64,000 nucleotides of DNA, taken from assembly GCA_019244185.1 (NCBI GenBank), contig JAFATB010000014.1:63587-127586 (forward strand), read 5' to 3'. The notes under the pieces are model-generated. The model did no database searches. It was not told where the DNA came from and saw only the letters and a list, made by a program, of their open reading frames with translations. The position numbers and the translations under genes were made by a program. The stretch is from Acidobacteriota bacterium. Lineage in GTDB: Bacteria; Acidobacteriota; Thermoanaerobaculia; Gp7-AA8. Below, piece after piece: positions 22,225-45,090 of this stretch. Numbering within the stretch: the stretch's first letter is position 1; every line of letters starts with the position of its first letter.

Positions 22225-22283
22225 GCCCGCTTTCGACACGCCGCGCAACCGCTTGTGGCGCGCGCCACCTTTCGCGCGGAAGC

Positions 22284-24497: not shown

Positions 24498-25837
24498 CGC
24501 AAAGCGAGACCGCGATCAAACCGAAGCACCGCGAAGCCATCATCCAGTCGTTGCGCGCCGGCGTCGTGCCGCGCGCGGGGCAGCAGCACATCCAGGTCGG
24601 ACGCCACGCCGAAGTGAAGGCGCTCCTCGGCGACATCGACCGCATCGCCGCGGGCGGCTCCGCGATCCGCTTCATCATCGGCGAGTACGGCTCGGGCAAG
24701 ACGTTCTTCCTGAACCTGATTCGCGCCATCGCGCTGGAGCGCAACCTCGTCGCCATCAACGCCGATCTCTCGCCCGACCGCCGCCTGCACGCGACCGGCG
24801 GCCAGGCGCGCTCGCTGTACGCGGAGCTGATGCGCAACCTCGCCACGCGCTCGAAGCCGGAATGCGGCGCGATGGCGAGCGTCGTCGAGAAATTCGTCAG
24901 CAGCGCGCTCGGCGAGGCGCGCGGCAGCGGACGCAGCGTCGACGAGATCATCCGCGCGCGGCTCGCATCGCTGCAGGAGCTCGTCGGCGGCTACGACTTC
25001 GCGCAGGTCATCGAGGCGTACTGGCGCGGCCACGACAGCGGCAACGAAGAACTGAAAGACGCCGCGCTGCGCTGGCTCCGCGGCGAGTACGCGACGAAGA
25101 CGGACGCGCGCGCGTCGCTCGGCGTGCGCACCGTCGTCAGCGACGCGAACGTCTACGATCAGCTGAAGCTCTTCGCGCGCTTCGTGCGTCTCGCGGGTTA
25201 CGCCGGGTTTCTGGTCGTGCTCGACGAGCTCGTGAACCTCTACAAGCTCGCCAACGCGCAGGCGCGCAACAGCAACTACGAACAGATCCTGCGCATCTTG
25301 AACGACGTGCTGCAGGGCAGCGCGGAAGGCCTCGGCGTCCTCCTCGGCGGCACGCCGGAGTTTCTCCTCGACACGCGCCGCGGCCTCTACAGCTACTCCG
25401 CGCTGCAATCGCGCCTGGCGCAGAACCAGTTCGCCGCGAACGGCTTCGTCGACTACAGCGGCCCCGTGCTCTCGCTCGCGCAGCTGACGAAGGAAGACCT
25501 CTACGTGCTGCTCGGGAACATCCGCAACGTCTACGCGTGCGGCGACGCCGCGAAGCATCTCGTGCCCGACGAGGCGCTCGAGGCGTTCATGCAGCACTGT
25601 TCGACGCGCATCGGCGACGCGTACTTTCGCACTCCGCGCAACACCGTCACCGCGTTCGTGAGCCTGCTCTCCGTGCTCGAACAAAACGCGCACGCCGACT
25701 GGCGCGAGCTCCTCGGCGCGGTGACGATCGCGCCGGAGCACAACCCCGATCTCGAAGGCGAGATCGTCGACGACGCGGCGCCGGCAGCAGGCACAGCGAA
25801 GGACGAGGACGACGACCTTGCCACCTTCCGCATCTGA
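24494..25837 (+). CDS. P-loop ATPase (Shango SngB-like)
   Basis: ATGA overlap with the upstream gene. Walker A GEYGSGKT and Walker B-like VVLDELVNL. The ORF-track start (23843) is inside the upstream gene. Confidence 0.65.
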   Translation: MTQSETAIKPKHREAIIQSLRAGVVPRAGQQHIQVGRHAEVKALLGDIDRIAAGGSAIRFIIGEYGSGKTFFLNLIRAIALERNLVAINADLSPDRRLHATGGQARSLYAELMRNLATRSKPECGAMASVVEKFVSSALGEARGSGRSVDEIIRARLASLQELVGGYDFAQVIEAYWRGHDSGNEELKDAALRWLRGEYATKTDARASLGVRTVVSDANVYDQLKLFARFVRLAGYAGFLVVLDELVNLYKLANAQARNSNYEQILRILNDVLQGSAEGLGVLLGGTPEFLLDTRRGLYSYSALQSRLAQNQFAANGFVDYSGPVLSLAQLTKEDLYVLLGNIRNVYACGDAAKHLVPDEALEAFMQHCSTRIGDAYFRTPRNTVTAFVSLLSVLEQNAHADWRELLGAVTIAPEHNPDLEGEIVDDAAPAAGTAKDEDDDLATFRI

Positions 25838-29601: not shown

Positions 29602-29677
29602 TGGCGCGCCCTGAGGGATTCGAACCCCCAACCAGCGGTTCCGAAGACCGCTGCTCTATCCGTTGAGCTAAGGGCGC
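29602..29677 (-). tRNA. tRNA-Arg (anticodon UCG)
   Basis: Cloverleaf folded by hand: acceptor GCGCCCT/AGGGCGC, D-stem GCTC/GAGC, anticodon stem GCGGT/ACCGC with loop CTTCGGA, T-arm GGGGG-TTCGAAT-CCCTC, discriminator G and an encoded CCA. 76 nt. Confidence 0.85.
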
Positions 29678-29758: not shown

Positions 29759-29834
29759 GCCGATGTAGCTCAGTTGGTAGAGCAGCTGATTCGTAATCAG
29801 CAGGTCACCGGTTCGAGTCCGGTCATCGGCTCCA
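29759..29834 (+). tRNA. tRNA-Thr (anticodon CGU)
   Basis: GCCGATGTAGCTCAGTTGGTAGAGC 5' half. Anticodon stem GCTGA/TCAGC with loop TTCGTAA. T-arm ACCGG-TTCGAGT-CCGGT. Acceptor GCCGATG/CATCGGC plus T-CCA. 76 nt. Confidence 0.85.
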
Positions 29835-29848
29835 TCTGCATCAACGAC

Positions 29849-30373
29849 TTAGCGCCGGCCGTGAGGCCGGCGTTCTCGTTTTCCCACAAGATTTCCCACA
29901 AAAGTCAGCAGTTCGTCGACGGCAGCATCGACGCCGGCGCACTCTTTCGCCGCGCCACCGATGCATCGTTCCGGCGCGATCGCGTACGCCGCCGCGGCCT
30001 CAGTCGGCGTTTGCGTAAGCGGCAGGTCCTGCTTGTTCACGAGGTACACGATCGGACGCCGATCCGCCGCCGCGTTGAAGAGCGTGAGCGCCGCGAGATT
30101 GTGCGCGTGCCTCGCGACTTGCGCGTCGAGCACGAAGAGCACGCCGTCCGCCGCACGATAGAACTCGACTGCCGCCGCGGCCGCGGCATCTGTGGCCGCG
30201 GCATCCAGGGTTTCGAAGTACCGGTTGCCGGGCAGCACCCGCGCGAGCTGCACGCGATGAACGCCGCGCTGGATCGACACGAAGTCGCTCGCCGTCGCGG
30301 AGGACGTCCGCGCGAGGCATTTCATGACTTCCGACCGCCCCGACATCGGCGGGCCGGCGACGGCGATTCGCAT
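29849..30373 (-). CDS. Ras-like small GTPase (MglA/Roc/Arf-like family)
   Basis: MRIAVAGPPMSGRSEVMK (P-loop G1-like) and LVNKQD (G4 NKxD). About 175 aa. Divergent from the large operon at 30451. Confidence 0.6.
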   Translation of the reverse strand: MRIAVAGPPMSGRSEVMKCLARTSSATASDFVSIQRGVHRVQLARVLPGNRYFETLDAAATDAAAAAAVEFYRAADGVLFVLDAQVARHAHNLAALTLFNAAADRRPIVYLVNKQDLPLTQTPTEAAAAYAIAPERCIGGAAKECAGVDAAVDELLTFVGNLVGKRERRPHGRR

Positions 30374-30450: not shown

Positions 30451-31044
30451 ATGCGGAGATGGATCGGCGGTTGGATCGCTGCGGTGCTGTTGTTGTTCGC
30501 GTTCGGTGTGCCGTGGCTGCGCGCGCAGTCGAACGCGGCGCGCGTGACGACGACGCAAACGGAAGAAACCGTCGACGCGACGGGGACGGACGGGGTGCAA
30601 ACCACGTCGACGACCACCACCACGACGTCCGTCATCGAAGGCGGCATTCCGTCGACCTCCGCCGCGCCGCCGCCCGCGTGGACGCACCTCGTGCGCATCG
30701 CCGCGAACGCCGGACCGATCGCGTTCCTGCTGCTGGCGTGGCTCATCGGCGGAATCATCCACGTGCGCATGGTCCGCCGCGAGCAGGCGCAGTTCCCGGT
30801 GCTGCGCGGCAGCCGCGCGCCGCAGACGGTGCCGATGATCGTCAGCGCGCTCCTGTTCCTCGTCCCGGCCATCCTCTTCATCGTCTTCGAGGTGCGCTCG
30901 CGCTACGAGATCCGCCGCGGCCTCGCCGGCGTCGTCGACGAATGGCAGCCGGTCACGGTGCACGCGTGGACGGCGCTCGTGATCTGTCTCGCGCTCGCGT
31001 TGATCCCGTGGCTGCTCGCGCGCCGCGCGGACACGGTCGCATAG
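30451..31044 (+). CDS. membrane protein with signal peptide, Thr-rich linker and 3 TM helices
   Basis: MRRWIGGWIAAVLLLFAFGVPWLRAQS, then TTSTTTTTTS, then three hydrophobic helices. 13 bp upstream of the giant gene. Confidence 0.5.
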   Translation: MRRWIGGWIAAVLLLFAFGVPWLRAQSNAARVTTTQTEETVDATGTDGVQTTSTTTTTTSVIEGGIPSTSAAPPPAWTHLVRIAANAGPIAFLLLAWLIGGIIHVRMVRREQAQFPVLRGSRAPQTVPMIVSALLFLVPAILFIVFEVRSRYEIRRGLAGVVDEWQPVTVHAWTALVICLALALIPWLLARRADTVA

Positions 31045-31057
31045 GAAGGACGGAATC

Positions 31058-34000
31058 GTGGCGAACTACCTCATTGCGGTCGGCGGCACCGGCCAGCACG
31101 TCGCACTCGCGGTGGCCGATTTCATCGCGCTCGCGTACGAGATCTACACCGAAGAATTTCCGAACGTTCAGATGATTCTCGTCGACGCCGATCAGGCGGC
31201 GGACACGGATCAGCCATCAGCGTGGCAGGAGGCGCGCGCGCGGCTCAACGCGCTCGGTCTGCTCGCCGGCGACAGCTTCGAATGCGTCCCGCTTCCGGTG
31301 CACTCGCAGCTCGCCGACTCGCGGCGCATGTACGAGTTCGTGAATCGCCTCGGCGCGTCGTTCGGTCCGAACGCGGCGGACGCGCTGCTGCTGCGCGAAC
31401 AGCGCGAGGTCGACGTGACGACCGGCTTCTACGCGCAGCCACGCGTCGGCGCGATGATGGCCGAATGGCTCTTCAATGAAGTGACGCGCGGCGACGGCGT
31501 GAACCCGCAGCTCGCGCGCATCTTCGCGCTCGCCGGCGATCCGGCGAATCGCATCGTCGTCGCGGGGTCGGGCGTCGGCGGCACCGGCGCGGGCTTCGCG
31601 CCCGCGCTCGTGCGGCGGCTCTCGGCGGCAAGCGGTGGTGGCCGGCTGATGGCGCTCATGGCCACGGAATGGTTCCGCCTCTCGGGCCTGTGCGCGAACC
31701 GCCTTTCGGAATCGGTGCAGAAGAGCAACGCGAACTCCGCGCTGTGGCACGCGGCGCATTCGGGCTCGAGCGCCGTGCGCACGATTCTGTTCGGACATCC
31801 GTCCGTCTCGCGCGCGCCGGAGGAGGAATGCCAGAGCGGCGCGTTCCAGGCGCGCAAGCGCAACCTCACCATTCCGTACTATGCGGCCGCGGCGGCGCTG
31901 TCGTTCTTCGCCGGCGATGCGAATGGCGGCACGCACGTGCCCGCGGCGACGCTCGCGGGCGACGTCGTTGCGCTGCCGAAGTCGCTGCGGATCACGCCGC
32001 GTCTGACGTTGCGCGAGCTCGTCGAGTCGAACGTCGAAGCGGTCGGGCGACTGACGCTCGCATCGGAGTATCTGCGCGGTCGCTATCAGGGATTCGTGCT
32101 GCCGTTCTCGTCGCTGAGCGGCCGGATCGCGGCGCTCGATCAGACCGACCGCCAGCGCATCGACGGTCCGCTCGCCGCGAAGCGCGCGGCCTTGCGCAAC
32201 CTCGGCGTCTCCGACGAGAAGCTGCCCGTCGTGCCGCGCATTCATCGCGGTCTCGCGACGCTGCGCGGCTGGGTCAACGGCAGAGTCGATCGTCCGTACG
32301 ATCTCTGGAAGGACGTTCCGGTCGTGCCGCCGCAGACGACCGAGCGCAAGGCTGAAGCCGTCGCGGCCGACAGCGACACCGCGGCGCTGCTCATCCGCAA
32401 GATCGGTTATGCCAGCCGCGTGACCGGCGGCAACGTCGTTCCGATCACGCAGGCGCAGGTGCGCGAGCTCGTGACCGTCGACGACGTCGACGTATCGAAA
32501 GTGCCGGCGTCGGACGCGGTGGAGCTCACGCTCGGCGACATCTTTCGCAATTGGGAAGCGCGCAACGGCGAGGAGAAGGCCGAGCTCGCGGCGCTGCTCG
32601 TCGAGGACGGGCGCGTGCGGCGTCCAGTGCTCGTCTCCGGTGACAAGGGCGACCGTCCGCGCGAATGGCTGAAGCGCTGGCTGCTGCTCGCGAACCTGCT
32701 CGTCGAGAACAAGCTGACGGTCGAACCGAAATCGCTGCCGTTCACGACGGGAAAGATTCTCTCGTTTCGCGGCATCCCGATCGGCGAGCTCTCGCGCGAG
32801 TTCGTCTGCCTGCCGCTCGTCAACGGCTACTGGAACGACGAGGCGACGATCGGCGCGCTGTGGAATGCGGCGTCGCGGCTCGAGTCGCTCGCGACGTGGT
32901 GCCGCAACACGGCCGCGGTCGCGCGCTGCCGAACGGCCGCACTGCCGGCGTGGCTCGACGTGCTGCTCTTCGCGACCTCGCGCTACGCCGGCGTGACCAA
33001 GCAGTTCACGTCGCAGAGCGTGACTGTGCGCTGGCCCGGCATCGCGGAGCCGGTCTCGCTGCCGCTGCCGAATGCCGCCGCCGGCAGTGCCGACGCGAAA
33101 GACTGCGTAGCCGCGGCGGCGGAGGCGTTCGGCGTGCTCACGCCGCAGCCGTCGCCCGCGGAGATGTCGCCGGCCGTGCGCGCGGTGGTGCAGGAGATCG
33201 CGCGCATCGCGCTCCCGGTTCCGCGGCTCGGCGGCGGCGAAACGAAGAGCATCGTCTTCTCGGAGTTGCTGCCGCCGGCGGCGCGCGACTGCCTCTTCGG
33301 CGAGATCGTCGTCGACACCGACGCGCGATGCGCGTGGCGGCTCGAAGCGACCGCGCGCATCGTCACGTCCGTCGCCGGCGAGTTGCTGACGGAGAACGTC
33401 GGCTGCTTCCGCAACGAGCAGCGGACGGAGTGGCTGACGCCGCTGCGGCGCGAGTACGTCCCGCTGCTCAAGTCGGGCGTCGTTGACGTGCGCAGCGAGG
33501 AGCACGGCCAGGAGCTGCGCGTCAGCGTGAGAGTCCACGACCGCACATTCGTCGAGTCGTACGCGGCGTCGCGCGTGCGTGCGATCAATCCGCTGCTGTT
33601 GCATTGGCCGGCGGCCGTCGCCAGTCCGTCGGCGAGCCTCACGGTGCTTTTCGACGTGCCGGAGCATCGCTACAGCCCGCAGACGGTGTACGCCGTGATG
33701 CACGACGCGCAGGCGAAGGCGTGGACGCTCTCCGCGCCGCTGAGCGAGCGGCACTCGCTGCACTACCTCGCCACCGACGGCAACGTGCCGCACAGCCTCT
33801 CGTTCGACCTCGAGCGTCACGACGTCGGCTTCGTGAAGATCGAGCGCGCGGTGCAGCACCTCGAAGACGCCACGCAGCGCGTCGCCGTCGACTTCGGCAC
33901 ATCGGCAACCGTCGTCGCGATCGACGGCGCGCAGAAAACGGAAGTGCTCGATCTCCTCGCCGCCGGCGCCGATGCGACCGCCGAGGTGTGGAAGGGGAGC

Positions 34001-35344
34001 GCGCTGGAAGCGTTCCAGTGGTACGGGACGCGTCCGGTGGATTCGACGATCCGCGAGAAGCGTCGCGCGCCGAGCGCGCTGGTCTATCTCGGATCGGCGA
34101 AAGATGCGCGTCCGCCGCGGCCGCAGTACGGCGATCACGTCCTGCTCGATCAGGACGACTGGCAGTGGAAGAGCGACGGCACGTCGCTGCTCTTCGACAT
34201 CAAGTGGACGCGCGAGCGCGCGTATCGCGAGGCGTTTCTCGTCCACCACCTCGAGCAGTGCATCGCCGCCGCACTCAGCAAAGGCATCGTGCACAGCCGC
34301 CGGCTCTCCGTCATCTTCACGATGCCGCTGCGGCAGCGCGCCCGCGCGGCGGATTTCGTCGCGGAGATCGAAGGCGTCATCGCGACCTTGCACCGCCGCA
34401 CCGGACTGCAGCTCGAGTCGCGGTTCGCGTACGAGTCGGAAGTCATCGCGCCGATCGAAGCGCCGGCGACCGATGTCGACGCGATCGTGATCGCGGACCT
34501 CGGCGGCGGAACGCTCGATTTGTTCGCGAAGCACTTCGGCCGCGGACGCAGGGGCGGCGCGCGCAACGTCGTCTTTGAGAGCGCGCGCATCGGCGGTCAC
34601 TCGCTCGTCGAATGGCTGACGCGCGACTTCGGCGGCACCGAGCTCGCGGAGTATCGCCGCAAGCTGCGCATCGGCTCCTTGCCGCAGCTCGACGAAGCGT
34701 CGTCGCGCATCGCCGCGAGTTACTTCGACGTCGTGAAGCGCTTCACCGCGCTCTGGATGGATTCGGTCTGGCGCTACTGGACCGGCGGCGACCAGCCAGG
34801 CCGCGTGCACGTGCAACTCCTCGGCATGGGCTGGTCGCTGCCGGCGTCGCCGGACGAGCAGATGGCGCTGCATCTCACCGACATCGCGCGCGCCCTCGGC
34901 TCGCAACTCGCGTACAGCCGCTACGAGGATCCGACGCTGCCCGGCAATCCGAAGGAGCTGCTGGCGCGCCGCACGATCCTGCACGGCGGCGCGACGCGCG
35001 GCGACTTCGTCGCGTTCGAACCGGCGGCGGTGAACGGCATCGAAGTCAGCGTCGCGGGCGAAGTCCGCCGCGACGACGAGCCGCTGCGCGGGCTCGGCGC
35101 GAACACGCCCGCCGTCGGCATCACCGCGAACGGACTGCAGCGCATCGCGAAGCTGACCGGCGCGCGCGAGGAGATCGTCGCCGCCGTGCGCGACGGCACG
35201 CGCATCGCGCTCACCACGCGCTCGACCGGCGTCGACAAACACGACGGCGCCGTGCTCGAAGGCGTGAACGTCTGGGTCGCCAGCCCGCTGGCCATCGCCG
35301 CGGAAACGTACACGCGCCAGGTGCTGCTGCAGGTGCACGCATGA
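31058..35344 (+). CDS. Giant (1428 aa) protein with N-terminal tubulin/FtsZ-like GTPase signature and C-terminal Hsp70/actin-like ATPase signature
   Basis: N-terminus IAVGGTGQHVALAV (T1-loop-like GGxGxx). VVAGSGVGGTGAGFAPALV matches the FtsZ/tubulin T4 signature GxGGGTGxGxAP. C-terminal region: AVDFGTSATVVAIDG (phosphate-1-like DxGT[ST]) and IVIADLGGGTLDLFA (Hsp70 phosphate-2 DLGGGTFD-like). These are motif-level assignments only. Confidence 0.6.
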   Translation: MANYLIAVGGTGQHVALAVADFIALAYEIYTEEFPNVQMILVDADQAADTDQPSAWQEARARLNALGLLAGDSFECVPLPVHSQLADSRRMYEFVNRLGASFGPNAADALLLREQREVDVTTGFYAQPRVGAMMAEWLFNEVTRGDGVNPQLARIFALAGDPANRIVVAGSGVGGTGAGFAPALVRRLSAASGGGRLMALMATEWFRLSGLCANRLSESVQKSNANSALWHAAHSGSSAVRTILFGHPSVSRAPEEECQSGAFQARKRNLTIPYYAAAAALSFFAGDANGGTHVPAATLAGDVVALPKSLRITPRLTLRELVESNVEAVGRLTLASEYLRGRYQGFVLPFSSLSGRIAALDQTDRQRIDGPLAAKRAALRNLGVSDEKLPVVPRIHRGLATLRGWVNGRVDRPYDLWKDVPVVPPQTTERKAEAVAADSDTAALLIRKIGYASRVTGGNVVPITQAQVRELVTVDDVDVSKVPASDAVELTLGDIFRNWEARNGEEKAELAALLVEDGRVRRPVLVSGDKGDRPREWLKRWLLLANLLVENKLTVEPKSLPFTTGKILSFRGIPIGELSREFVCLPLVNGYWNDEATIGALWNAASRLESLATWCRNTAAVARCRTAALPAWLDVLLFATSRYAGVTKQFTSQSVTVRWPGIAEPVSLPLPNAAAGSADAKDCVAAAAEAFGVLTPQPSPAEMSPAVRAVVQEIARIALPVPRLGGGETKSIVFSELLPPAARDCLFGEIVVDTDARCAWRLEATARIVTSVAGELLTENVGCFRNEQRTEWLTPLRREYVPLLKSGVVDVRSEEHGQELRVSVRVHDRTFVESYAASRVRAINPLLLHWPAAVASPSASLTVLFDVPEHRYSPQTVYAVMHDAQAKAWTLSAPLSERHSLHYLATDGNVPHSLSFDLERHDVGFVKIERAVQHLEDATQRVAVDFGTSATVVAIDGAQKTEVLDLLAAGADATAEVWKGSALEAFQWYGTRPVDSTIREKRRAPSALVYLGSAKDARPPRPQYGDHVLLDQDDWQWKSDGTSLLFDIKWTRERAYREAFLVHHLEQCIAAALSKGIVHSRRLSVIFTMPLRQRARAADFVAEIEGVIATLHRRTGLQLESRFAYESEVIAPIEAPATDVDAIVIADLGGGTLDLFAKHFGRGRRGGARNVVFESARIGGHSLVEWLTRDFGGTELAEYRRKLRIGSLPQLDEASSRIAASYFDVVKRFTALWMDSVWRYWTGGDQPGRVHVQLLGMGWSLPASPDEQMALHLTDIARALGSQLAYSRYEDPTLPGNPKELLARRTILHGGATRGDFVAFEPAAVNGIEVSVAGEVRRDDEPLRGLGANTPAVGITANGLQRIAKLTGAREEIVAAVRDGTRIALTTRSTGVDKHDGAVLEGVNVWVASPLAIAAETYTRQVLLQVHA

Positions 35345-36045
35345 ACCAGATGCCGGTGATCCTCGCGCTCGCGGTTCTCGCGCTGACGATCGTGCTCACC
35401 GCGCTCGCGCTGACGATGCGCCTGCGCGCGCTCGAGAAAAGCGTCCACGCGGCGCAGGACCGCGGCCGCGCGTCGAAGGACAAAGACACGCGGCGCGAAG
35501 AGCTGGCGCAGCTGAAGAGCGAGCTGCAGAAGAGCATCGAGTCGCTGCGCTCGACGATCGTGAATGTGCCGGTGGAAGTGGTGCGTCGGCTGCCGCGGCA
35601 AAACTTCGATGCAGCTCCGCCGCGCGCGATGAATCCGCCGCCGGCATCGCGCAGCGTGTTCCGCGATGAGCGCCAAGCCGAGCATTACGCTGAGTCAGTC
35701 TCCGCGGAAGACGGAGCCGCGCAGCTGCTTGCGCTCGCGAACCGCATCGTGCAGCAGAACTCCACCACGCTCGACGCCGTGCGCGCGAGCACCGACGCTC
35801 TCGCCGCGCACGTCACCGTCTGGCCGCCGTCGGGGGAAGGCACTCCGATCGCGTTCATCGTCGAGCATCGCGGCACGTGGTACGCGGTCCCGAACGTCGT
35901 CAAGCCGGCGCGGCTGCCGAACGACTGGTTCAACCGCGCCGACTTCGGCGTGAACGACGAGATCCGCCGCGTCGAATCGCTGCCGCGCCTCACGCGCCGC
36001 GGCGACGACTTCGAAGTGCAGCACGCCGGAGTGTTCTCGCGATGA
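35341..36045 (+). CDS. single-pass membrane protein with coiled-coil segment and C-terminal globular domain
   Basis: ATGA overlap with the giant gene. N-terminal TM MNQMPVILALAVLALTIVLTALALT, then heptad-like ELAQLKSELQKSIESLRS. Confidence 0.5.
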   Translation: MNQMPVILALAVLALTIVLTALALTMRLRALEKSVHAAQDRGRASKDKDTRREELAQLKSELQKSIESLRSTIVNVPVEVVRRLPRQNFDAAPPRAMNPPPASRSVFRDERQAEHYAESVSAEDGAAQLLALANRIVQQNSTTLDAVRASTDALAAHVTVWPPSGEGTPIAFIVEHRGTWYAVPNVVKPARLPNDWFNRADFGVNDEIRRVESLPRLTRRGDDFEVQHAGVFSR

Positions 36046-37427
36046 CGGTGCTCTCGCTGCAGGCTCCTCGGCCTCCGGCGCGGCGGCTCTTCTGGGAGCC
36101 GTGGCTCGCCGTCGTCGTCGCGGCGGCGCTGTACCTGCGCGTCGCGGCCGGCCAGTGGGGCGGGCTCGCCGCGCTCGCATGCGAGCTCGCGCTCGCGGTG
36201 ATCCTGCGCGCGCAGCTGTTGCGGCGCGCGGACGAAGAGGCGGAGCTGACGGAGCGCCTCGCATCGCGCGACCTCTCGATCACCGACGTCGATCGCCTGA
36301 TCGGCAGCACCGCGGAGCGTGTGCAGGGGATGTTCGCCACCGCGTCGAGCGCCGTGCTGGCCACGGGGATGGCGGCGTCCGCGTTTCTGCTGCTGTTCTA
36401 CGCGAGCGCCGGAACGACCGGCGGCGGCATCGTGTCGGTCGCGCCGAAGGCGTTCGTCGCGACCGGCTACGCGATCCTCTGCGCGCTGGCGCTGACGCGC
36501 GACGCGCATCACCTGAACGCGACGATCTTCGAGCCGCTGCGGCGGAAGAAACTCGACGACGCGAATCGCGAGCCGACGCCGGCGACGCGATCCGCGGTCG
36601 CGCCGGAGTCGCGGACGTCGCGCGTCGAGGAGCTCATCGAACAGCTCGTCTCGATGCAGATCAGCCAGCTGCAGGCGCTCCACGAAGCGAATCAGCAGCT
36701 CGCCGCCGCCGCGTCGGAACGCGTCGACGAAGAGTCGGGCGCGGTGCGCGTGAAGCTCGCGAAGGGACTCACCGATTTCCGCAAATCGGTCGAGCAGCTG
36801 AACGAGATCGTGCAGTCGCTCAACGCGCGTTTCGACGCACTCACGCACGAGGACGCGGCGCTCTTCGAGCAGCACCGGCGCGAGCTCGTGAGCGAGATCG
36901 TGCGGTTACCGCAGCAGGTCATCGACCGCACCGCGGGACTCATCGCCACGTCGGTGACGCGGGTCGAGGAGCAGTTCCGCGCGACGCTGCAGACGATTCA
37001 CGACGACGAGATCCGCCGCGCGCGCGATCTGCTGGCCGGCGAATTCCGCACGCTGCGCGATCAATTCGAGCTCACGGAGCATTCCGTCTCCGCGATCAGC
37101 ACGCGCTTCAACGACGTCGTCTCCTCGCTCGACGCGCTCGCCTCCGCGTTCGACCGCGGCGCGAAGTCGGTTGTCGGCAGCGCCGCGGAGTTCACGCGCG
37201 AGGCGGAGTCGCTCGTCGCGTCCGTCACCACGGCGTTGGGCCGGCTGGGCGACGCGGACGAGACGAACGCGTCGCTGCTCACGCCGCTCACCGAAGCCGC
37301 GACCGCGGTGCGCAAAGCGTCGTCGCTCGTCGCCACCGACATGCGCAAGGTCGCCGCGGAACGCGAGCGCCTCGGCCGCGTGCGGCTGAAGCTCCTCGAG
37401 CTGCTGCCGAACGGGCAGGAGAACTGA
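36042..37427 (+). CDS. MotA/TolQ/ExbB-like membrane protein with long C-terminal coiled-coil tail (ZorA-like architecture)
   Basis: N-terminal 4 TM helices. The last two (LATGMAASAFLLLF and GIVSVAPKAFVATGYAILCALALT) resemble the TolQ LGTVxGIxxAF and GIAPxIAEALxATAxGL helices. About 300 aa of heptad-rich sequence follow. ATGA overlap with the upstream gene. Confidence 0.5.
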   Translation: MTVLSLQAPRPPARRLFWEPWLAVVVAAALYLRVAAGQWGGLAALACELALAVILRAQLLRRADEEAELTERLASRDLSITDVDRLIGSTAERVQGMFATASSAVLATGMAASAFLLLFYASAGTTGGGIVSVAPKAFVATGYAILCALALTRDAHHLNATIFEPLRRKKLDDANREPTPATRSAVAPESRTSRVEELIEQLVSMQISQLQALHEANQQLAAAASERVDEESGAVRVKLAKGLTDFRKSVEQLNEIVQSLNARFDALTHEDAALFEQHRRELVSEIVRLPQQVIDRTAGLIATSVTRVEEQFRATLQTIHDDEIRRARDLLAGEFRTLRDQFELTEHSVSAISTRFNDVVSSLDALASAFDRGAKSVVGSAAEFTREAESLVASVTTALGRLGDADETNASLLTPLTEAATAVRKASSLVATDMRKVAAERERLGRVRLKLLELLPNGQEN

Positions 37428-37429
37428 CG

Positions 37430-38155
37430 ATGTTCGGGCGCGGCGTCAACTACTGGATCTCGTGGGCCGACCTCACGTTCATGCTCTTCATCGGCGGACT
37501 CGCGGCCGTCGCGTTCAGCGACGAGCAGCGGACGGCGGCGCAACAGGAACTCGCGGCCGCGAAGGGTGCGCTCGCGGAAGCGCGCGGCGAGCTCGACGTC
37601 CTCCGCAGCCACAGCAATCCGTGCGCGGATGCGAGTCCGTTCCTGGCCGGCTTCTCGAGCTGCGTCGCGCGGGCGACCGGCCGCAGACAGGTGCCGGGCA
37701 GCGGCTGCTTCGTGACCGTCGGCGAAGACGTGATCCGCTTCGAGAAGGGGAAGGCCGTGCCGCTCGACGCGTCGTCCGCCGACGCCGTGGCCGGCTGCCT
37801 CTACACGAACGCGCTGCGGTTCGCGGCGGCGGATCCGCGCTCCTTCAACGCGATCACGATTCACGTCGACGGACATACCGACTGCGTCGGCACGCGCGCG
37901 GGAAACGAGAAGCTCGGCGCGGACCGCGCGTTCAGCGTGTACGCGCGCCTCCTCGAACGCGCGGAGAGCGATCCGGTCTGGCTATCGCCGAAGCAGCGGC
38001 GCGCGTTCCTCGGACGCATCGCCGTGCGCTCGTTCGGCGACACGCGTCCCGTCGAAGGCTCACGGTGCATCGCGCCGTTCGGCTGGGAAGGCGATCGCCG
38101 CGTCGTCGTCTCCGTGCAGCTCGCGACCGAAGGCGCCGCGGGGAGGCGCGGGTGA
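37430..38155 (+). CDS. MotB/OmpA-family protein (stator MotB/ZorB-like)
   Basis: YWISWADLTFMLFIGGLAAVAF matches the MotB plug/TM region with the conserved proton-accepting Asp (ADL). C-terminal OmpA-like peptidoglycan-binding motif ITIHVDGHTDCVGTRAGNEKLGADRAFSVYARL. Confidence 0.75.
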   Translation: MFGRGVNYWISWADLTFMLFIGGLAAVAFSDEQRTAAQQELAAAKGALAEARGELDVLRSHSNPCADASPFLAGFSSCVARATGRRQVPGSGCFVTVGEDVIRFEKGKAVPLDASSADAVAGCLYTNALRFAAADPRSFNAITIHVDGHTDCVGTRAGNEKLGADRAFSVYARLLERAESDPVWLSPKQRRAFLGRIAVRSFGDTRPVEGSRCIAPFGWEGDRRVVVSVQLATEGAAGRRG

Positions 38156-38331
38156 TCTCGACGATCGTGATGGTCGCCGTCGTCGTGCTGCTCGCGTTCA
38201 CGCTCGCCGCGGCGCGGCGTTCGTGGCAGCGGCAGCTCGAACTGGAACGCGCAAACGAGACGATGCAGCGCGAGCTACAGCGCCACCGCGACACCGTGCA
38301 TTCGATTCTTCGGGAGTTGCAGAATCCATGA
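38152..38331 (+). CDS. small single-TM protein (59 aa), unannotated
   Basis: GTGA overlap with the motB-like stop. VISTIVMVAVVVLLAFTLAAA TM plus a charged helical tail. ATGA overlap with the next gene. Confidence 0.45.
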   Translation: MISTIVMVAVVVLLAFTLAAARRSWQRQLELERANETMQRELQRHRDTVHSILRELQNP

Positions 38332-39545
38332 GAAAGCCTGCGTTGCTGCTCGCGGTCTGGTTCGTCGTGACGGCGTGCGGTGGAGGTGAAGAACGCGCCG
38401 TCACCGTCGAATGCCGGCCGTCCGTGAGCGTCGTCATTCCGGCCGCGGGCAACGCGCGACGCAAGGCGGAGGCGGCGCAGGCGCGCGAAGTCGTGCAGGT
38501 GTACTGGGACGTCTCACGATCGATGCGCGATTTCGCGGTCGCGCGCAAGCATGGCGGCGGCGCGGAAGCGACCGACGATCTCACGCCGGTAGTCGAAGCG
38601 CTCGACAGCGGTGTCTTGCTTTCCGCGCATGCGGAGGCGGTCGAACAGTACGGCGTCGGCGAATCGATCGCGCGGCTGGCCACCGCGCGCGCGGCGCTGC
38701 ATCCCACCGCGAACCGCACCGCGCTGCATCTCGCCGCGGAGCAACTCGGCGACGCGCTCGCAACCGGCCGCGCGCAAGCCGCGATCGTCGTCTCCGACAT
38801 GGAGCTCGATACGCCGCCGCGCGCGTCGACCGACGCCACGGTCTGCGGCGGCGTGCCGCTGCCGAGCACGCCGCTGGCGGGCTCGCTGTTCGGCCGCTGC
38901 TTCGAGAACGCGGTGCTCGCCGTCGACGCGCCGAGCGCCATGCGCGCGCGCCTGCTCGCGCACGTCTTCCGCAAGGCCTCGCACGGACGCGAGCTGTTCA
39001 TCCTCCTGCTGGCGACGGACCACGCGTTCGGCCAGCACATCTCCGAACAGATCGTGAGCCGTCTCGACTTCGAGCGGCAGGTCATCTTCGATGCGAACGC
39101 GGTGGCGGCGTCGAACGTCCGCGGCTGCCGCTTCACGATCCCCGAGTCGCGCGTGCGTCCGCGCGATCTGCCGCGGTGCGGCGCGAAGTGCTTCGATCGC
39201 GACGCATCCATCGAAACCGAATGCGATCTGCGCCGTCCGGCGAACGATGCTTGGATCGAGCCCGCGGGACGCGGCTCGACCGGCACCTCGTACGAGTCGC
39301 TGCAGAAACGGGCAGGCGACCGCGAGGAGCCGGCGCGCATGCGATTCACGATTCCGTGCAGTACGCCGCCTGGGCGATTCGACGCGTCCGTCTCGTTCAC
39401 ATGGCGCCGGCGTTTAGCGCGCAACGCAGCCGAGCCGTTCGCGCAAAAGGAAAGTGTGCGCGATCTCTTCGACAGTCTCTCCGACGCGATCGTGCGCGTC
39501 GTCGCGCCGCGCACGCTGCGCGTCAGCGTGAATCTCCACCAATGA
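38328..39545 (+). CDS. vWA-domain lipoprotein
   Basis: Lipobox LAVWFVVTAC. MIDAS DxSxS motif (YWDVSRSM) shortly after the signal. 4-nt coupling with both neighbours. Confidence 0.6.
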   Translation: MRKPALLLAVWFVVTACGGGEERAVTVECRPSVSVVIPAAGNARRKAEAAQAREVVQVYWDVSRSMRDFAVARKHGGGAEATDDLTPVVEALDSGVLLSAHAEAVEQYGVGESIARLATARAALHPTANRTALHLAAEQLGDALATGRAQAAIVVSDMELDTPPRASTDATVCGGVPLPSTPLAGSLFGRCFENAVLAVDAPSAMRARLLAHVFRKASHGRELFILLLATDHAFGQHISEQIVSRLDFERQVIFDANAVAASNVRGCRFTIPESRVRPRDLPRCGAKCFDRDASIETECDLRRPANDAWIEPAGRGSTGTSYESLQKRAGDREEPARMRFTIPCSTPPGRFDASVSFTWRRRLARNAAEPFAQKESVRDLFDSLSDAIVRVVAPRTLRVSVNLHQ

Positions 39546-39658: not shown

Positions 39659-39724
39659 ACGCCCCAAGGTAGGGACTCGCCCGCTTCCCGACTCTCCATG
39701 GTTGTGGAACGTAAAGGAGACGTG

Positions 39725-41266
39725 ATGAGTCGACGTGTAATCCGAGGTTTGGCCGCGCTCGTTTTCCTCGTTGGGGCTCTTTCCTGCAAGCAAGAGACGC
39801 CGTCGCCGGCGGTCGACAAGGCGCCGCCGCCCGCGCCGAAGCCGGCGGTGGTGACGACGGTGAATCTGCCGCCGAACTCGTGGCAGGTGCCGGTCGACGT
39901 CAGTCCCACCCCGCCGCCCAATCCGCCGCAGAACAACTACCTCAACCTCGGCTGGCAGACCTTCGTCGCGCTCAACTGGCCGGCGCTCTCGCCGTCGTCA
40001 GGCGGACAGAACGCGCAGCCGGACACGAACTCCGTCATCGGCGCGGTGGCACCGAACGGCGCGATCGTGCCGACGGTGTGGAACACGTACCGCGATCTCA
40101 GCACGATCATGCTCGATCAGGGCGCCGATCCGGGATCGACGTACACGCAGCAGGTTTCGATCCCGTCCGCGTGCGCGGCGATCACGCCGGCCAATCCGGT
40201 CGCGCCGGGCTTCCAGCCGATGTACATCGACGGCTCGACGTTCCAGACCGCGACGATCGTGCGCGACTACATCAATCAGGCCACCGGCAATCCGCTCGTC
40301 GATCAGAAGGGGTGGTACACGATCACGGACATCCGCGTCGATCCTTCCGAGTACGCGTACATCCAGCAGAACGGCTACTACCTCGGCGCGAATCAGGTCG
40401 CGGCGTACAACAAGTCGGGCCAGTTGCAGCCGTTCCCGAAGAACGGCACCGAGATCACGCCGCCGCTGCCGTCGTACGCGCAGTACGGCGCGCTCGAGGT
40501 GAAGGCGACGTGGCGCGTGCTGAATCCCTCGACCGACTCCGCGATCATCCCGCGCTACTACACGCAGTGGGGTTACTTCATGCAGCCGGACGGCAAGACC
40601 TGCCAGGGACCGGCGCTGTTCGGCCTCATCGGCATGCATATCCTTCGACTCACACCGTCGATGGGCGGCACGTGGTTCTGGGCGAGCTTCCAGCAGGTCG
40701 ACAACGTCGCCGCACCGAACGGCATCGCGCCGACGCTCGCGAAGCTGGGCACGCCGAACGGCAACTGCGGCGGCAACTACAACAAGAAGCCGCCGCAGGT
40801 CACCGGCAACATTCCGTGGAACGGCAACAACACGCCGGACGACATCTGCCAGGTCAAGAACATCCCGAGCGAAGTGCAGCAGGTCAATCAGACGTGGCAG
40901 AAGAATCTGAGCGGCACGGTCTGGCAGTACTACGAGATGGTGCACACGCTCAACCCTTGCCCGTCGGGCGCGAAGGAATGCTACGTCTTCCCGCCGATCA
41001 AGGATCAGAACAACAAGATCGATCTGAAGATCTTCGGCAACAACGCCATCGAGACGTACTTCCAGACCAGCAACTGCATGACCTGTCACGGCTCGGCGTC
41101 GGGCAACGGCGCGCCGTCGCCGCTGACCGGCACGAACCAGATCTTCACGTTCGTCCTGCTCAACGCGTACATGCCGCAGACGACGCAGACGAACGCGAAG
41201 CGCAGCGAGATCAAGCGGCTGCTCGAGGTGCTGCCGCAGAGCGACGCCGTCGCCATGCATCCGTAG
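39725..41266 (+). CDS. secreted lipoprotein, Pro-rich linker, N/Q/T-rich body, single C-terminal CxxCH motif (possible c-type haem site)
   Basis: RBS AAGGAGA. Lipobox LVGALSC. PAVDKAPPPAPKPAVV linker. NCMTCHG near the C-terminus. Codon and amino-acid composition shifts to lower GC relative to its neighbours. Confidence 0.5.
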   Translation: MSRRVIRGLAALVFLVGALSCKQETPSPAVDKAPPPAPKPAVVTTVNLPPNSWQVPVDVSPTPPPNPPQNNYLNLGWQTFVALNWPALSPSSGGQNAQPDTNSVIGAVAPNGAIVPTVWNTYRDLSTIMLDQGADPGSTYTQQVSIPSACAAITPANPVAPGFQPMYIDGSTFQTATIVRDYINQATGNPLVDQKGWYTITDIRVDPSEYAYIQQNGYYLGANQVAAYNKSGQLQPFPKNGTEITPPLPSYAQYGALEVKATWRVLNPSTDSAIIPRYYTQWGYFMQPDGKTCQGPALFGLIGMHILRLTPSMGGTWFWASFQQVDNVAAPNGIAPTLAKLGTPNGNCGGNYNKKPPQVTGNIPWNGNNTPDDICQVKNIPSEVQQVNQTWQKNLSGTVWQYYEMVHTLNPCPSGAKECYVFPPIKDQNNKIDLKIFGNNAIETYFQTSNCMTCHGSASGNGAPSPLTGTNQIFTFVLLNAYMPQTTQTNAKRSEIKRLLEVLPQSDAVAMHP

Positions 41267-42439: not shown

Positions 42440-44023
42440 TCATTTGCGCGCGTCGAGCTTCAGCCGCAGCCCGTTCTTCGCCGTGCCGACCGGATTTCCC
42501 TGCACGTCGACGTAGAGCGTCGCGCCGCGCGCGGTGGTGATGGCGATGTCCAACTTCGTGTCGTGATTGCGATCGGCGACGTGCAGGCTGGCGATGGTCT
42601 CCGTGCGCGGCATCAGGTGTCCCGACCAGAGCGGCTTCGCGTCGCGCAGCTTCTTGGGATCGTAGACGAGCACGCGGTTCGCGCCCGCGACGGCGATGCG
42701 CGGCGCGTAGTGCGGACCGGCGCGGTAGATCTCGACGGCGCGCAGTTTCTCGGGCGCCTCGCACGTGTCGCCGCGGCCTCCTTCCGCATCGTAAATGGCG
42801 ATGTGCCCACCCCACAGCGCGACGAAATGGTGATGACCGTTGCGGAACAGATCGCCCGCGGTGAGCTCGCGCAGCGGCTCGGGTCCGGTGATCGTCCAGA
42901 CGCGCGTGCCGATGCGGTCGAAGCCGATGAGTGCTTTGCGCGTGCCGGCGACGATGGTGCCGTCGGCCTGCGCGGTGTGCGTGATCGGAGCCTCGACGTC
43001 GTTGCGCCAGAGCAGCTTGCGCGGCGACTTGAGAAAGGTGCGAAGCGTATGTCCACTCGCAACCACGATGACAGGCGGTGGAGGCGGAACGCTGCAATCG
43101 GCGAGCGGCATGTTCTTGGCCTCGCCGTCGAGGCTGATCTGCGTCGCCGAGCCGATCGCGTGGTCGACGTGGTCGCGGATCCACTTGCGCACGCTGCGCT
43201 CGACGTACGCGTGCAGCGTCGTCGCGGTCACGCGCTTCCGTAACGTCGTGGCGTTGCACTGCAGCCCTTCCATCACCGCGGCGGTGAAGACGCCGTTGCG
43301 CCGGTCCGGATCGTCGTATGCGGCGCCTACGGTCGAGAGCACGACCTGTCCGTGGACGCGCGGCATCTGCTTCGCGAGCGTCATCCCCGCGTACGACAGC
43401 GCGTCGACGCCGCGGCTGCCGGCGATGCGCTGCTTGCACGCGTCGATGAGGATGAGCGAGCGCGGCACGCGGTGCGCGGCGATGACGTCGAGCAGCGCCG
43501 CGGTCGACACCGGTTGTCCCGACGCCGCCACGACGTGCTGGATGCCGCCGCGGACGAAGCCGTGCGTCGCGAACGAGACGATGAGAAAGCCGTGGCTGCC
43601 CGCGATCGCCGCCTGCTGCCCGGCGAGGGCGAGGATGTGGTGCGGCTCGGCTTTCGCGACGCGCGCGCCGGCGCGGATCAACTCGCGCAGCCGGTTGCTT
43701 GACTCCGGTTTGTCCGGCGCGCCGGAGAGCGCGAGCACGATGCGCTGCGGCGGCACGAGGCGCACGCGGCGATCGAAGGCGAAGAGATACGCGAGATCGA
43801 TCGCATCGTCGACGGCGTACGGGATCTCGCGCAACGCGCCGCGGTCGAAGGTGCGGATGCCGACGAAGAGCGCCGCCGCGCGGCCGCCGTCGGCCGGCGC
43901 GGACGTGCTAGCGTCGACGAGTGAGAGCGGCGTCACCGAGCGCTGTCCCGCAAACTCCGCGGCGCCGAATGCGGCCGATAGACAGGCGAAGGCGACGAAC
44001 GTCCAGCGCTTCACGGAGCTCAC
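42440..44023 (-). CDS. caspase-family (peptidase C14) secreted protein with C-terminal beta-rich domain
   Basis: Signal peptide. Catalytic dyad context SFATHGF (His-Gly) and LILIDACKQ (Cys). Confidence 0.6.
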   Translation of the reverse strand: MSSVKRWTFVAFACLSAAFGAAEFAGQRSVTPLSLVDASTSAPADGGRAAALFVGIRTFDRGALREIPYAVDDAIDLAYLFAFDRRVRLVPPQRIVLALSGAPDKPESSNRLRELIRAGARVAKAEPHHILALAGQQAAIAGSHGFLIVSFATHGFVRGGIQHVVAASGQPVSTAALLDVIAAHRVPRSLILIDACKQRIAGSRGVDALSYAGMTLAKQMPRVHGQVVLSTVGAAYDDPDRRNGVFTAAVMEGLQCNATTLRKRVTATTLHAYVERSVRKWIRDHVDHAIGSATQISLDGEAKNMPLADCSVPPPPPVIVVASGHTLRTFLKSPRKLLWRNDVEAPITHTAQADGTIVAGTRKALIGFDRIGTRVWTITGPEPLRELTAGDLFRNGHHHFVALWGGHIAIYDAEGGRGDTCEAPEKLRAVEIYRAGPHYAPRIAVAGANRVLVYDPKKLRDAKPLWSGHLMPRTETIASLHVADRNHDTKLDIAITTARGATLYVDVQGNPVGTAKNGLRLKLDARK

Positions 44024-45084
44024 ACGATACCGTTGCCCTGCGTCTGCGCCGTGACGCCGCCGAGGAATCGCACCGCCGCCGCGAATCCTTCTGCGATCCC
44101 CGATTGCGACACCTGCACGACTTCCTGCAAGCCGCCCGCGCTGCGCAGCTGCAGTTCGTCATAGAGGCAGATCGGCAGCCGCGGATTGCTGGCGAAGCGG
44201 CGATCCGGACCTCCGTCGCGGTTGACGTAACGCCAGGTGTAACCGACGACCAGGGCGTCGAACGGCGCGGGAGGGGTTTGGATCATCCGCGACTCGGTGA
44301 CGCTGAGCTCGAGCGAGCGGTATGCGAGCGCGCCGATGCTGCGGCCGTCGTCGATGAGCAGGCGATCGGGTAGGAAATAGAGCGTTCGCGCGCCCAGGGC
44401 GAGGCTGGGGATCGCGACATTCGTGCGTAGATAGGGCGGTGCGGCGAAGCGCATGCGCGTGAGCTCGCGCGGCACCAGCGGACTCGCGCCGGCGTTGTAC
44501 TTCCAGTCGTACACGCCGCCCGATGCCTCCACGTGCCAGAGCCGCTCCGACACCGCGAGCGCCTGCGACCACTCGAGCAGGCGGTGAAACGCCTCCGCCG
44601 CCTGCGACTGAAGGTCGTACAGGACGACGACGTGCCTACGCCGCACGTCGCTGTACTTCGCCGCCGCGATCGCGGCGATGCCGACGGCGAACGCGAACAA
44701 GATGAAATCGGCCGATCCCGTCGAAGCAGCGTAGAGGAAGAAGAGAAACGCGCCGACGATCACCGGCAGCGTGATTCTGGTCGCGCTCCGCGCCGCGCGA
44801 ATTTGTTCGAGGAGCTGCATCGAGGACGAGTCGGCGAGCGACGCCGCGTCAGGGCCGCTCGTCTGCAGCGGCAAGAGCGCCGGCGTTGCGACGCGCGTGG
44901 GTGCATGCGCGCGCGGCAGCGTGTGGTGATACGACACGCCGCCGAGGCCCATGCGCACGTAGTTGCCGCGCGGTCCGGTGCCGACGCGGAAGCCGCGCAC
45001 GCCGACGGACATGCCGACGCCGGAGCCGGAGAGATTGAAGCGGAACGGACCGACGGAGACGCTCTTGCGGTACGAAAAGCCCAT
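44020..45084 (-). CDS. DUF4236 domain protein
   Basis: N-terminal MGFSYRKSVSVGPFRFNLSGSGVGMSVGVRGFRVG is the hallmark DUF4236 repeat. 4-nt overlap with the downstream caspase gene. Confidence 0.6.
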   Translation of the reverse strand: MGFSYRKSVSVGPFRFNLSGSGVGMSVGVRGFRVGTGPRGNYVRMGLGGVSYHHTLPRAHAPTRVATPALLPLQTSGPDAASLADSSSMQLLEQIRAARSATRITLPVIVGAFLFFLYAASTGSADFILFAFAVGIAAIAAAKYSDVRRRHVVVLYDLQSQAAEAFHRLLEWSQALAVSERLWHVEASGGVYDWKYNAGASPLVPRELTRMRFAAPPYLRTNVAIPSLALGARTLYFLPDRLLIDDGRSIGALAYRSLELSVTESRMIQTPPAPFDALVVGYTWRYVNRDGGPDRRFASNPRLPICLYDELQLRSAGGLQEVVQVSQSGIAEGFAAAVRFLGGVTAQTQGNGIV

Positions 45085-45090
45085 GCGCCG

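Follow-up and report, generated by a model that had tools for sequence, protein, structure and literature searches.

A candidate, very diverged ZorAB/MotAB-like stator pair in a rare gene cassette encoding a tubulin-like giant protein

Can two adjacent genes, the first of whose products is recognised by no profile of the MotA/ExbB family, still encode a membrane stator? Ion-driven 5:2 motors are known in MotAB, ExbBD, TolQR, GldLM/PorLM and ZorAB, and how the tail of ZorAB relays a signal to partners in the cytoplasm is a matter of current study. The question is raised here by two genes, which we call A and B, at 36042-38155 of a 64,000-nucleotide stretch of DNA (the window; positions 63,587 to 127,586 of contig JAFATB010000014.1, assembly GCA_019244185.1) from a metagenome-assembled genome (MAG) of the Thermoanaerobaculia (Acidobacteriota), with a high G+C content of ~65-72%. 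A preliminary description of this DNA had placed there a pair resembling ZorA and ZorB. On our best reading it belongs, as a branch that has diverged very far, to the ZorAB-like pairs found alongside FtsZl1 genes, for instance Deinococcus DR_0536-0538, and we regard it as rather probable that A and B form a very diverged ZorAB/MotAB-like stator module tied to a tubulin-like/Hsp70-like NTPase.

Both open reading frames (ORFs) assigned to this segment were confirmed, and the two peptide strings quoted for it were found as residues 12-23 (WADLTFMLFIGG) and 145-170 (HVDGHTDCVGTRAGNEKLGADRAFSV) of B. Gene A (36042..37427, + strand) encodes a putative stator A-subunit analogue of 461 amino acids (aa), with a domain of four transmembrane (TM) helices and a helical tail of ~300 aa, and gene B (37430..38155, +) encodes a 241-aa MotB/ZorB-like subunit. 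The sequence of A is identical to the NCBI entry 'MAG: hypothetical protein JO197_01175 [Acidobacteria bacterium]'. Homologues at 54% identity or more were found for A (n=38) and B (n=60), nearly all of them on Thermoanaerobaculia-type metagenome contigs and with mean column identities of 71-76% in the alignments; because such conserved homologues exist we treat A and B as real genes. They are genes 4 and 5 of a collinear seven-gene cassette (g1, g2, g3, A, B, g6, g7) in which several genes overlap at start or stop or nearly abut their neighbours. The start of A overlaps the stop of g3 as ATGA, and the ATG of B is placed 2 nt past the stop codon of A. This spacing suggests that the cassette genes may be translationally coupled.

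Hydropathy analysis of B revealed one hydrophobic segment, residues 10-28 (37457..37513, +), and its position together with the invariance of its residues defines the predicted TM helix. Asp14 (codon GAC, 37469-37471) therefore lies inside this helix, near its cytoplasmic end. In 40 close homologues Asn7, Tyr8, Trp9, Asp14 and Thr16 are invariant, and across nine divergent members the TM segment keeps only Asn7, Trp9 and Asp14. When profiles were compared with hhalign, Asp14 was placed on MotB Asp32 (P 0.07) and on ExbD Asp25 (P 0.18), in alignments of short segments that are not significant. Past the helix come a helical linker of variable length and then a domain with six conserved Cys, whose sequence fits a periplasmic location. 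The OmpA-type peptidoglycan-binding domain spans residues ~140-212 (37847..38065, +) and was assigned from Pfam OmpA (30.3 bits, over the gathering score of 27.2) and from PDB sequence matches, which are OmpA-like domains; it carries the motif DGHTDC..G....N..LG..RA, with Asp151 and Arg166 conserved. A Foldseek search with the AlphaFold model of B (predicted local distance difference test, pLDDT, 81) gave 39 PDB matches at E <= 0.001, and the best folds were full-length ZorB (8vvn_B, E 1.2e-6; 8vvn_A, E 2.6e-6; 250 aligned columns), the next ZorB matches being 8qyd_F and 8vvi_A (TM-score 0.52 normalised to the query). The ZorB chains rank ahead of or among isolated OmpA/Pal/MotB-C domains. PADLOC ZorB1 models matched B with E values between 6e-7 and 3e-3, in alignments confined to the OmpA part (residues 96-233), and in the distant locus L094 residues 7-73 of B match positions 14-84 of ZorB3 and so reach the N-terminal TM region. 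Because the TM aspartate is invariant, the OmpA match exceeds its gathering score and ZorB is the best fold, we conclude that B is a MotB/ZorB-type subunit. The preliminary description had proposed a MotB-like second protein with a conserved aspartate in its TM helix and an OmpA domain, and this holds.

The membrane domain of A (residues 16-152; 36087..36497, +) comprises TM1 to TM4 with a 40-aa cytoplasmic TM2-TM3 loop. Its four hydrophobic segments (~16-34, 40-60, 98-121 and 130-152) are all helical in the AlphaFold model, which is of moderate confidence, so that hydropathy and model agree on the four TM helices claimed earlier. Basic residues are found before TM1, within the TM2-TM3 loop and past TM4, and by the positive-inside rule this placement would give A an N-in/C-in topology, as in MotA. 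Conservation is highest in TM3 and TM4: in an alignment of 16 divergent members of the A family Gly109 and Leu117 of TM3 are invariant, as are Pro135, Ala137, Phe138 and Thr141 within the TM4 family signature APKAFxATG. Distant relatives (P0101-P0108) also have four TM helices, APKAFxATG in TM4 and a helical tail of 300-550 aa. Two charged residues of the membrane domain have no obvious counterpart in TolQ or MotA, namely Glu48 (36183-36185) inside predicted TM2, which is Glu or Gln in most family members, and Lys136 (36447-36449) at the periplasmic end of TM4, which is nearly invariant within APKAF. The top eight PDB matches of the A model in Foldseek are all ExbB, TolQ or MotA, at weak E values (0.05-0.2). 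These weak matches, the topology and the gene context indirectly favour a stator role for A.

Behind TM4 lies the cytoplasmic tail (residues 153-461; 36498..37424, +), defined from the AlphaFold model and from periodicity. It is almost wholly helical in the model (H195-226, H235-402 and H410-454), and its hydrophobic periodicity of 3.5-3.67 residues was reached by 1 of 500 shuffles. The helical tail of about 300 aa that had been described behind the TM domain is thus supported by both.

The partner to which we tie this pair is g2 (31058..35344, +), a giant tubulin/FtsZ-like protein of 1428 aa recognised from Tubulin_2 matches and motifs. Its N-terminal domain is tubulin-like: Tubulin_2 (PF13809) was matched in all eight members of the g2 family (best E 1.1e-6) and PF00091 in five of the eight. 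On the g2 of the window Tubulin_2 scores 24.4 bits, under the gathering score of 27, and on the copy in locus L005 it scores 27.4. The T1-like loop GGTGQH and the T4 loop GGTGAG are conserved. The C-terminal ~500 aa contain VDFGTS and ADLGGGTLDL, phosphate motifs like those of the Hsp70/actin fold, and GGTGAG, DFGTS and DLGGGTLD are kept across six divergent homologues. From these motifs the C-terminal part may be Hsp70-like; it gave no hidden Markov model (HMM) or PDB sequence match. Between the two parts, at residues ~300-930, lie ~600 aa with no Pfam match and with few invariant columns across six aligned homologues. The sole match in a PADLOC scan of g2 was 'Effector' at E 0.079, which is chance level.

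Tubulin_2 corresponds to the FtsZl1 family of Makarova & Koonin 2010, whose operons contain vWA and OmpA-family genes (PMC2875224). Additional file 5 of that work reports, for D. radiodurans and D. deserti, FtsZl1 (1070 aa), a 'MotA/TolQ/ExbB membrane protein' (411 aa) and an OmpA family protein (200 aa), in operons DR_0540-DR_0534 and Deide_2p00760-00810 (PMC2875224). We located the D. deserti operon (L098) on plasmid 2 (NC_012529: 110941-118592), where a gene for an LRV-repeat protein follows the OmpA gene; RefSeq calls the tailed FtsZl1-linked protein of this locus only 'hypothetical protein'. This 411-aa protein matches Pfam MotA_ExbB weakly (E 0.06) and PADLOC ZorA1 over both membrane core and tail (E 1.6e-7; E 1.4e-8 for its relative P0113). 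The Deinococcus ZorA-like family, a thin profile of five sequences (at least six relatives were found), scored 35.1 against a TolQ profile (P 1.6e-4). The OmpA partner matches ZorB3 over its full length (residues 9-191 against positions 12-200), and its N-terminal motif NPYIAFSDLM is common to the B family of the window. The L098 operon is a ZorAB-like module with a tubulin-like partner.

The window pair could be aligned with this Deinococcus pair at both subunits. Comparison of the A family with the FtsZl1-linked ZorA-like tails by hhalign aligned 151 C-terminal columns (score 41.9, P 1.3e-4, Prob 54%) and ended at both C-termini; in shuffles by blocks of seven columns the score was 16.0 +/- 2.5 with a maximum of 22.7, and none of the 40 shuffles reached 41.9. 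For the B family the best alignment with the Deinococcus ZorB-like protein was the TM/Asp segment (P 0.0067), which in both carries the motif N..[AS]D[LM]. The cassette fits the FtsZl1 operon class, with a Tubulin_2-type gene, a tailed membrane protein gene and an OmpA protein gene in the same order. By position A corresponds to a recognisable ZorA-like protein, whose tail it shares, and the membrane domain of A has either diverged beyond detection or been replaced. There are also differences. The Deinococcus A-type protein is recognisably ZorA/MotA-like and by sequence inspection apparently has three TM helices, whereas A of the window has four. The Deinococcus FtsZl1, at 1070 aa and with a Tubulin_2 score of 235 bits, is without Hsp70-like motifs, and g2 shows marginal similarity to it only at the T1 and T4 loops. 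LRV-repeat and kinase partners stand in the Deinococcus operons instead of g3, g6 and g7. In the literature that could be searched, no paper links Zorya-like or MotA modules with tubulin-like proteins beyond the supplement of PMC2875224; the pairing of tubulin-like, MotA-like and OmpA proteins could be seen from 2010 onwards in a supplementary table and nowhere else (PMC2875224).

Several results weigh against placing the pair among the ZorAB/MotAB-like modules. MotA_ExbB (PF01618) was matched neither by full-length A in Pfam/NCBIfam scans, nor by three isolated TM regions even at E <= 10, nor by eight distant A relatives in HMM scans. A PDB sequence search (phmmer) and a profile search with A found no relative, and when 1.84 billion representative proteins were searched exhaustively with an HMM of the TM region, 11 proteins were returned, with no canonical MotA or ExbB among them. 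A three-sequence TolQ/ExbB/MotA alignment was too shallow for hhalign; against a TolQ/ExbB profile that combined ~80 TolQ sequences from metagenomes with the TolQ and ExbB of E. coli, the A family scored 18.3 (P 0.064, Prob 0.9%); column shuffles scored 12.9 +/- 2.8 and 2 of 60 reached the observed score, while E. coli MotA as a positive control scored 31.6 (P 6e-4) against the same profile. The alignment of the A membrane domain with the Deinococcus ZorA-like family had a P of 0.1. The PADLOC models ZorA1 (E 1.5e-4) and ZorA2 (E 2e-3) do match A, covering only residues 194-451 in the tail, and helical tails can give spurious profile matches, as illustrated by P0103, which matches JetC and LmuB at E ~1e-4 to 1e-5. 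On the side of B, MotB_plug (PF13677) was not matched by three isolated N-terminal segments at E <= 10. ZorC/D, ZorE and ZorF/G of PADLOC had no match in g1, g2, g3, g7 or the next downstream gene (the scan left out the 59-aa g6), PADLOC makes no system call for the cassette, and no nuclease, protease or other effector domain is recognisable in the core cassette. Finally, the function proposed for FtsZl1 operons was membrane remodelling (PMC2875224). The first protein thus lacks MotA/ExbB homology in profile searches, an outcome that the preliminary description had itself named as refuting, the claim of a MotA-family channel is not supported in that form, and A, judged by its sequence, cannot be filed in Pfam MotA_ExbB.

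The last two helices of A had further been said to resemble the pore helices of TolQ, ExbB and MotA. The local alignment of A with TolQ consists of TM4 against the last TolQ helix, with VAP...KAFVAT facing VAPGIAEALIAT and Thr141 on Thr178 (P 0.064). The same TM4 register is found in the A-TolQ, A-Deinococcus and Deinococcus-TolQ alignments, of which the two pairings with A are individually non-significant; in these, Thr141 is aligned with TolQ Thr178 and with a Ser of the Deinococcus proteins.

That A has no MotA/ExbB sequence homology in any search would also suit an account in which A is an unrelated 4-TM anchor of a helical scaffold, of the apolipoprotein, PspA or SMC-like coiled-coil kind, which organises or tethers g2 at the membrane. 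B would then be a peptidoglycan anchor whose TM aspartate is structural or serves assembly, there would be neither ion flow nor rotation, and the whole would be an FtsZl1 'membrane remodelling' machine as hypothesised before (PMC2875224). In HMM scans the tail of A indeed matches apolipoprotein, ATG17 and coiled-coil families. We consider this account unlikely, since Asn7, Trp9 and Asp14 of B are invariant in divergent members while the rest of the helix varies, and since Gly109, Pro135 and Thr141, polar or small residues in TM3/TM4 of A, are invariant too. It is further opposed by the best Foldseek matches of A, all of which are A-subunits of 5:2 motors, and by the Deinococcus positional counterparts, which are recognisable ZorA and ZorB relatives with a common tail.

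Could the pair then be a flagellar stator (MotAB/PomAB), or a Tol/Ton-type ExbBD/TolQR motor, that was mis-recognised? With MotA/MotB (PomA/PomB) it shares an A subunit that has four TM helices, N-in/C-in topology and a loop in the cytoplasm between TM2 and TM3, a B subunit that has an OmpA-like domain and one TM helix bearing an Asp close to the cytoplasmic side, and the order of motA-motB, the 4-TM protein being encoded upstream. However, the TM2-TM3 loop of A is 40 aa long, whereas the last two TM helices of E. coli MotA begin near residue 165, and because of this short loop A has no counterpart of the large cytoplasmic rotor-facing domain. A also differs in lacking sequence-level homology and in its long tail, and B in lacking a MotB_plug match. 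With the ExbB/ExbD and TolQ/TolR motors the pair shares ExbB and TolQ as top Foldseek matches of A and the TM4 resemblance to TolQ described above, which is non-significant. In contrast to B of the window, ExbD and TolR have no OmpA domain (PMC12505986), and there is no TonB or TolA partner in the cassette. A tail of ~300 aa is absent from MotA, ExbB and TolQ alike, the partners are a tubulin-like giant and a vWA-like lipoprotein and not flagellar or Tol/Ton genes, and the A family amounts to only 11 clusters among 1.84 billion representatives. We rejected a flagellar stator or Tol/Ton motor on gene context and tail, and with the searches effectively refuting it we regard it as highly improbable.

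Of the other cassette genes, g3 offers a possible route from the membrane pair to g2. Gene g3 (35341..36045, +) encodes 234 aa with one TM helix, from hydropathy, and a conserved C-terminal domain of ~70-115 aa. One member of the A family, the 725-aa P0102, carries the same domain as an extension of the distal tip of its tail (hhalign Prob 95%, E 1.9e-8; BLASTP E 2.8e-9), and because of this fusion the sequences point to contact between the tip of the A tail and the g3 C-terminal domain. Gene g7 (38328..39545, +) encodes a 405-aa lipoprotein (MRKPALLLAVWFVVTAC) with vWA-like motifs; in an alignment that includes the distant L005 homologue, VYWDVSxS (DxSxS, like the metal-ion-dependent adhesion site, MIDAS) is invariant and the motif VVSDMELD is present. 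On these motifs g7 is probably a periplasmic vWA-like protein, and it gave no Pfam vWA match. The first gene, g1 (30451..31044, +; ORF and hydropathy), encodes a membrane protein of 197 aa that has four hydrophobic segments and, close to its N-terminus, a Thr-rich stretch; it gave no family match in Pfam, NCBIfam or PADLOC scans. The ORF g6 (38152..38331, +) encodes a 59-aa single-TM protein and overlaps the stop of B and the start of g7.

All seven genes recur in the same order in six further Thermoanaerobaculia loci, the flanks of which bear no relation to those of the window, with g1 kept at the first position and with cassette identities of 65-77%; g6 was found by tblastn in all six and is called as a gene in two of them (L003 and L004). 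Three far more distant metagenomic lineages (L005, L094 and L095) keep g2, A, B and g7 and have some gene at the g3 position, and on three more contigs, all short, A and B remain neighbours. The A family is extremely rare, with 11 clusters in 1.84e9 representative proteins and only four matches in 185,579 species genomes, all of them Thermoanaerobaculia. A gene for a trypsin-like serine protease was seen right after the B-like gene, on the opposite strand, in L006 (3030-3875) and L094 (10340-11272); this protease could be a lineage-specific effector or partner.

The closest architectural comparison is with Zorya ZorAB (5:2; PDB 8qyd, 8vvn and 8vvi; PMC11890865). In both, an A-type TM domain is followed by a long C-terminal helical cytoplasmic tail, a B-type protein combines a peptidoglycan-binding domain with a TM helix at the N-terminus that contains a conserved Asp, and gene A precedes gene B; the best fold of B is ZorB, and ZorA and ZorB models match the A tail and the B OmpA part, respectively. 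The differences are that the A TM domain is recognised by no ZorA or MotA_ExbB model, that the tail of ~300 aa is shorter (ZorA1 models are 487-727 positions long), and that the genes alongside encode a giant protein with tubulin-like and Hsp70-like parts, a lipoprotein of the vWA-like kind and three small membrane proteins. Membership in Zorya types I-III was rejected, because ZorC/D/E/F/G are absent from the genes scanned and the ZorA core is unmatched. Of the Zorya-type stator architecture proposed in the preliminary description, the ZorB-like B and the tailed 4-TM A remain; the ZorA core does not, and types I-III are excluded. Its observation that the genomic partners differ from those of Zorya was correct, no Zor model matching g1, g2, g3, g7 or the next downstream gene. 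One may still ask whether this is a true Zorya system against phage, of a new type in which ZorAB is joined by new effectors and g2 is the effector. The very patchy distribution, the non-syntenic position beside tRNA genes in a neighbourhood that includes TerB, helicase and caspase genes, the resemblance of the fold of B to ZorB, the ZorA-like tail and the PADLOC ZorA/ZorB matches all speak for it. We nevertheless find it doubtful, given that the Zorya partner genes are missing, that ZorA models match only the tail and that no nuclease or other known effector domain was found; moreover, the 65-77% cassette identity in Thermoanaerobaculia also fits a housekeeping envelope function.

If A and B are indeed a very diverged ZorAB/MotAB-like module, they would make up a complex of the MotAB/ZorAB kind in the inner membrane, anchored to peptidoglycan. 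B would most likely dimerise and anchor to the cell wall by its OmpA domain, and its Asp14 would lie in the membrane, ringed by TM3 and TM4 of A with their invariant Thr141, Pro135 and Gly109. The A:B stoichiometry would probably be 5:2, and ion flow past Asp14 would most likely drive movement of A relative to B. As in ZorA, the ~300-aa tails of A could bundle into a cytoplasmic rod and carry this movement, or a conformational state, into the cytoplasm over a distance of ~30-40 nm, as estimated from ~300 helical residues with a rise of 1.5 Å per residue and a deduction for loops. At its tip the rod would contact the C-terminal domain of g3 and, through g3 or directly, might reach the NTPase g2. 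With g7 in the periplasm and g1 and g6 in the membrane, the products could complete an envelope-spanning machine.

The role of such a machine would most likely be Zorya-like, that is, to sense an event at the envelope, for example damage to it or attack by phage, and to transduce it to the cytoplasmic NTPase. We favour a Zorya-like envelope-sensing or conflict function because the family is extremely rare and the cassette non-syntenic with its flanks, because the cassette follows two tRNA genes and lies near TerB, helicase and caspase genes, and because trypsin-like protease genes adjoin B in two distant lineages. A role in defence proper is a guess, as no effector domain is recognisable and PADLOC calls no system, and membrane remodelling, as suggested for FtsZl1, is a serious alternative. 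More specific still, and possible rather than probable in our view, is an undescribed envelope-spanning machine in which an ion-driven 5:2 rotary motor of ZorAB ancestry, with a membrane domain no longer recognisable by sequence, is coupled through the tail, mechanically or allosterically, to the tubulin-like GTPase and Hsp70-like ATPase g2. If this were true, a membrane rotary motor would be wired to a cytoskeletal-type NTPase, and together the cassette and the Deinococcus operons would make up a 'tubulin-linked Zorya-like' class.

Four features are new here, namely the orphan membrane domain in A, the joining of a tubulin-like with an Hsp70-like part in g2, the fusion of the g3 domain to the A tail and the seven-gene architecture. 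ZorAB-like modules tied to tubulin-like NTPases and not to nucleases would widen the range of targets that such motors drive or control, and the uncharacterised FtsZl1 family would gain a concrete energy-coupling or sensing component. The membrane domain of A would be an example of stator-like drift beyond all current HMMs, which matters for surveys of motors with Pfam or PADLOC. Asp14 of B and Thr141, Pro135 and Gly109 of A offer handles for mutagenesis, and the fusion of the g3 domain to the A tail offers one for the contact between them.

Upstream of the cassette the window contains tRNA-Arg(TCG) (29602-29677, -) and tRNA-Thr(CGT) (29759-29834, +), both predicted by ARAGORN, and a terminator scan found a terminator-like hairpin (29851-29874) directly upstream of g1; a tRNA pair with a hairpin in front of the cassette is a typical island insertion site. 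Further upstream lie genes for a 1143-aa superfamily 1 (SF1) helicase with an RNase H-like domain (18904-22335, -), a TerB_N/TerB/TerB_C protein (22284-24497) and a DEAD/DEAH helicase (25818-28013), and this cluster (18904-28013) looks like a TerB-associated stress or conflict module. Directly after the cassette comes a gene for a 522-aa secreted or lipoprotein-like protein (39698-41266), which other loci do not keep beside the cassette. A haem-binding-like CxxCH motif (NCMTCHG) lies close to the C-terminus of this protein, and its Pfam cytochrome c matches are weak (E 0.026-0.16). Three genes on the - strand follow at 42440-47283, encoding a 527-aa protein with a weak PQQ_2 (beta-propeller-like) match, a DUF4236 protein (44020-45084) and a Peptidase_C14 caspase-domain protein (45091-47283). 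The 527-aa protein has a homologue in locus L091, encoded ~5 kb downstream of the cassette.

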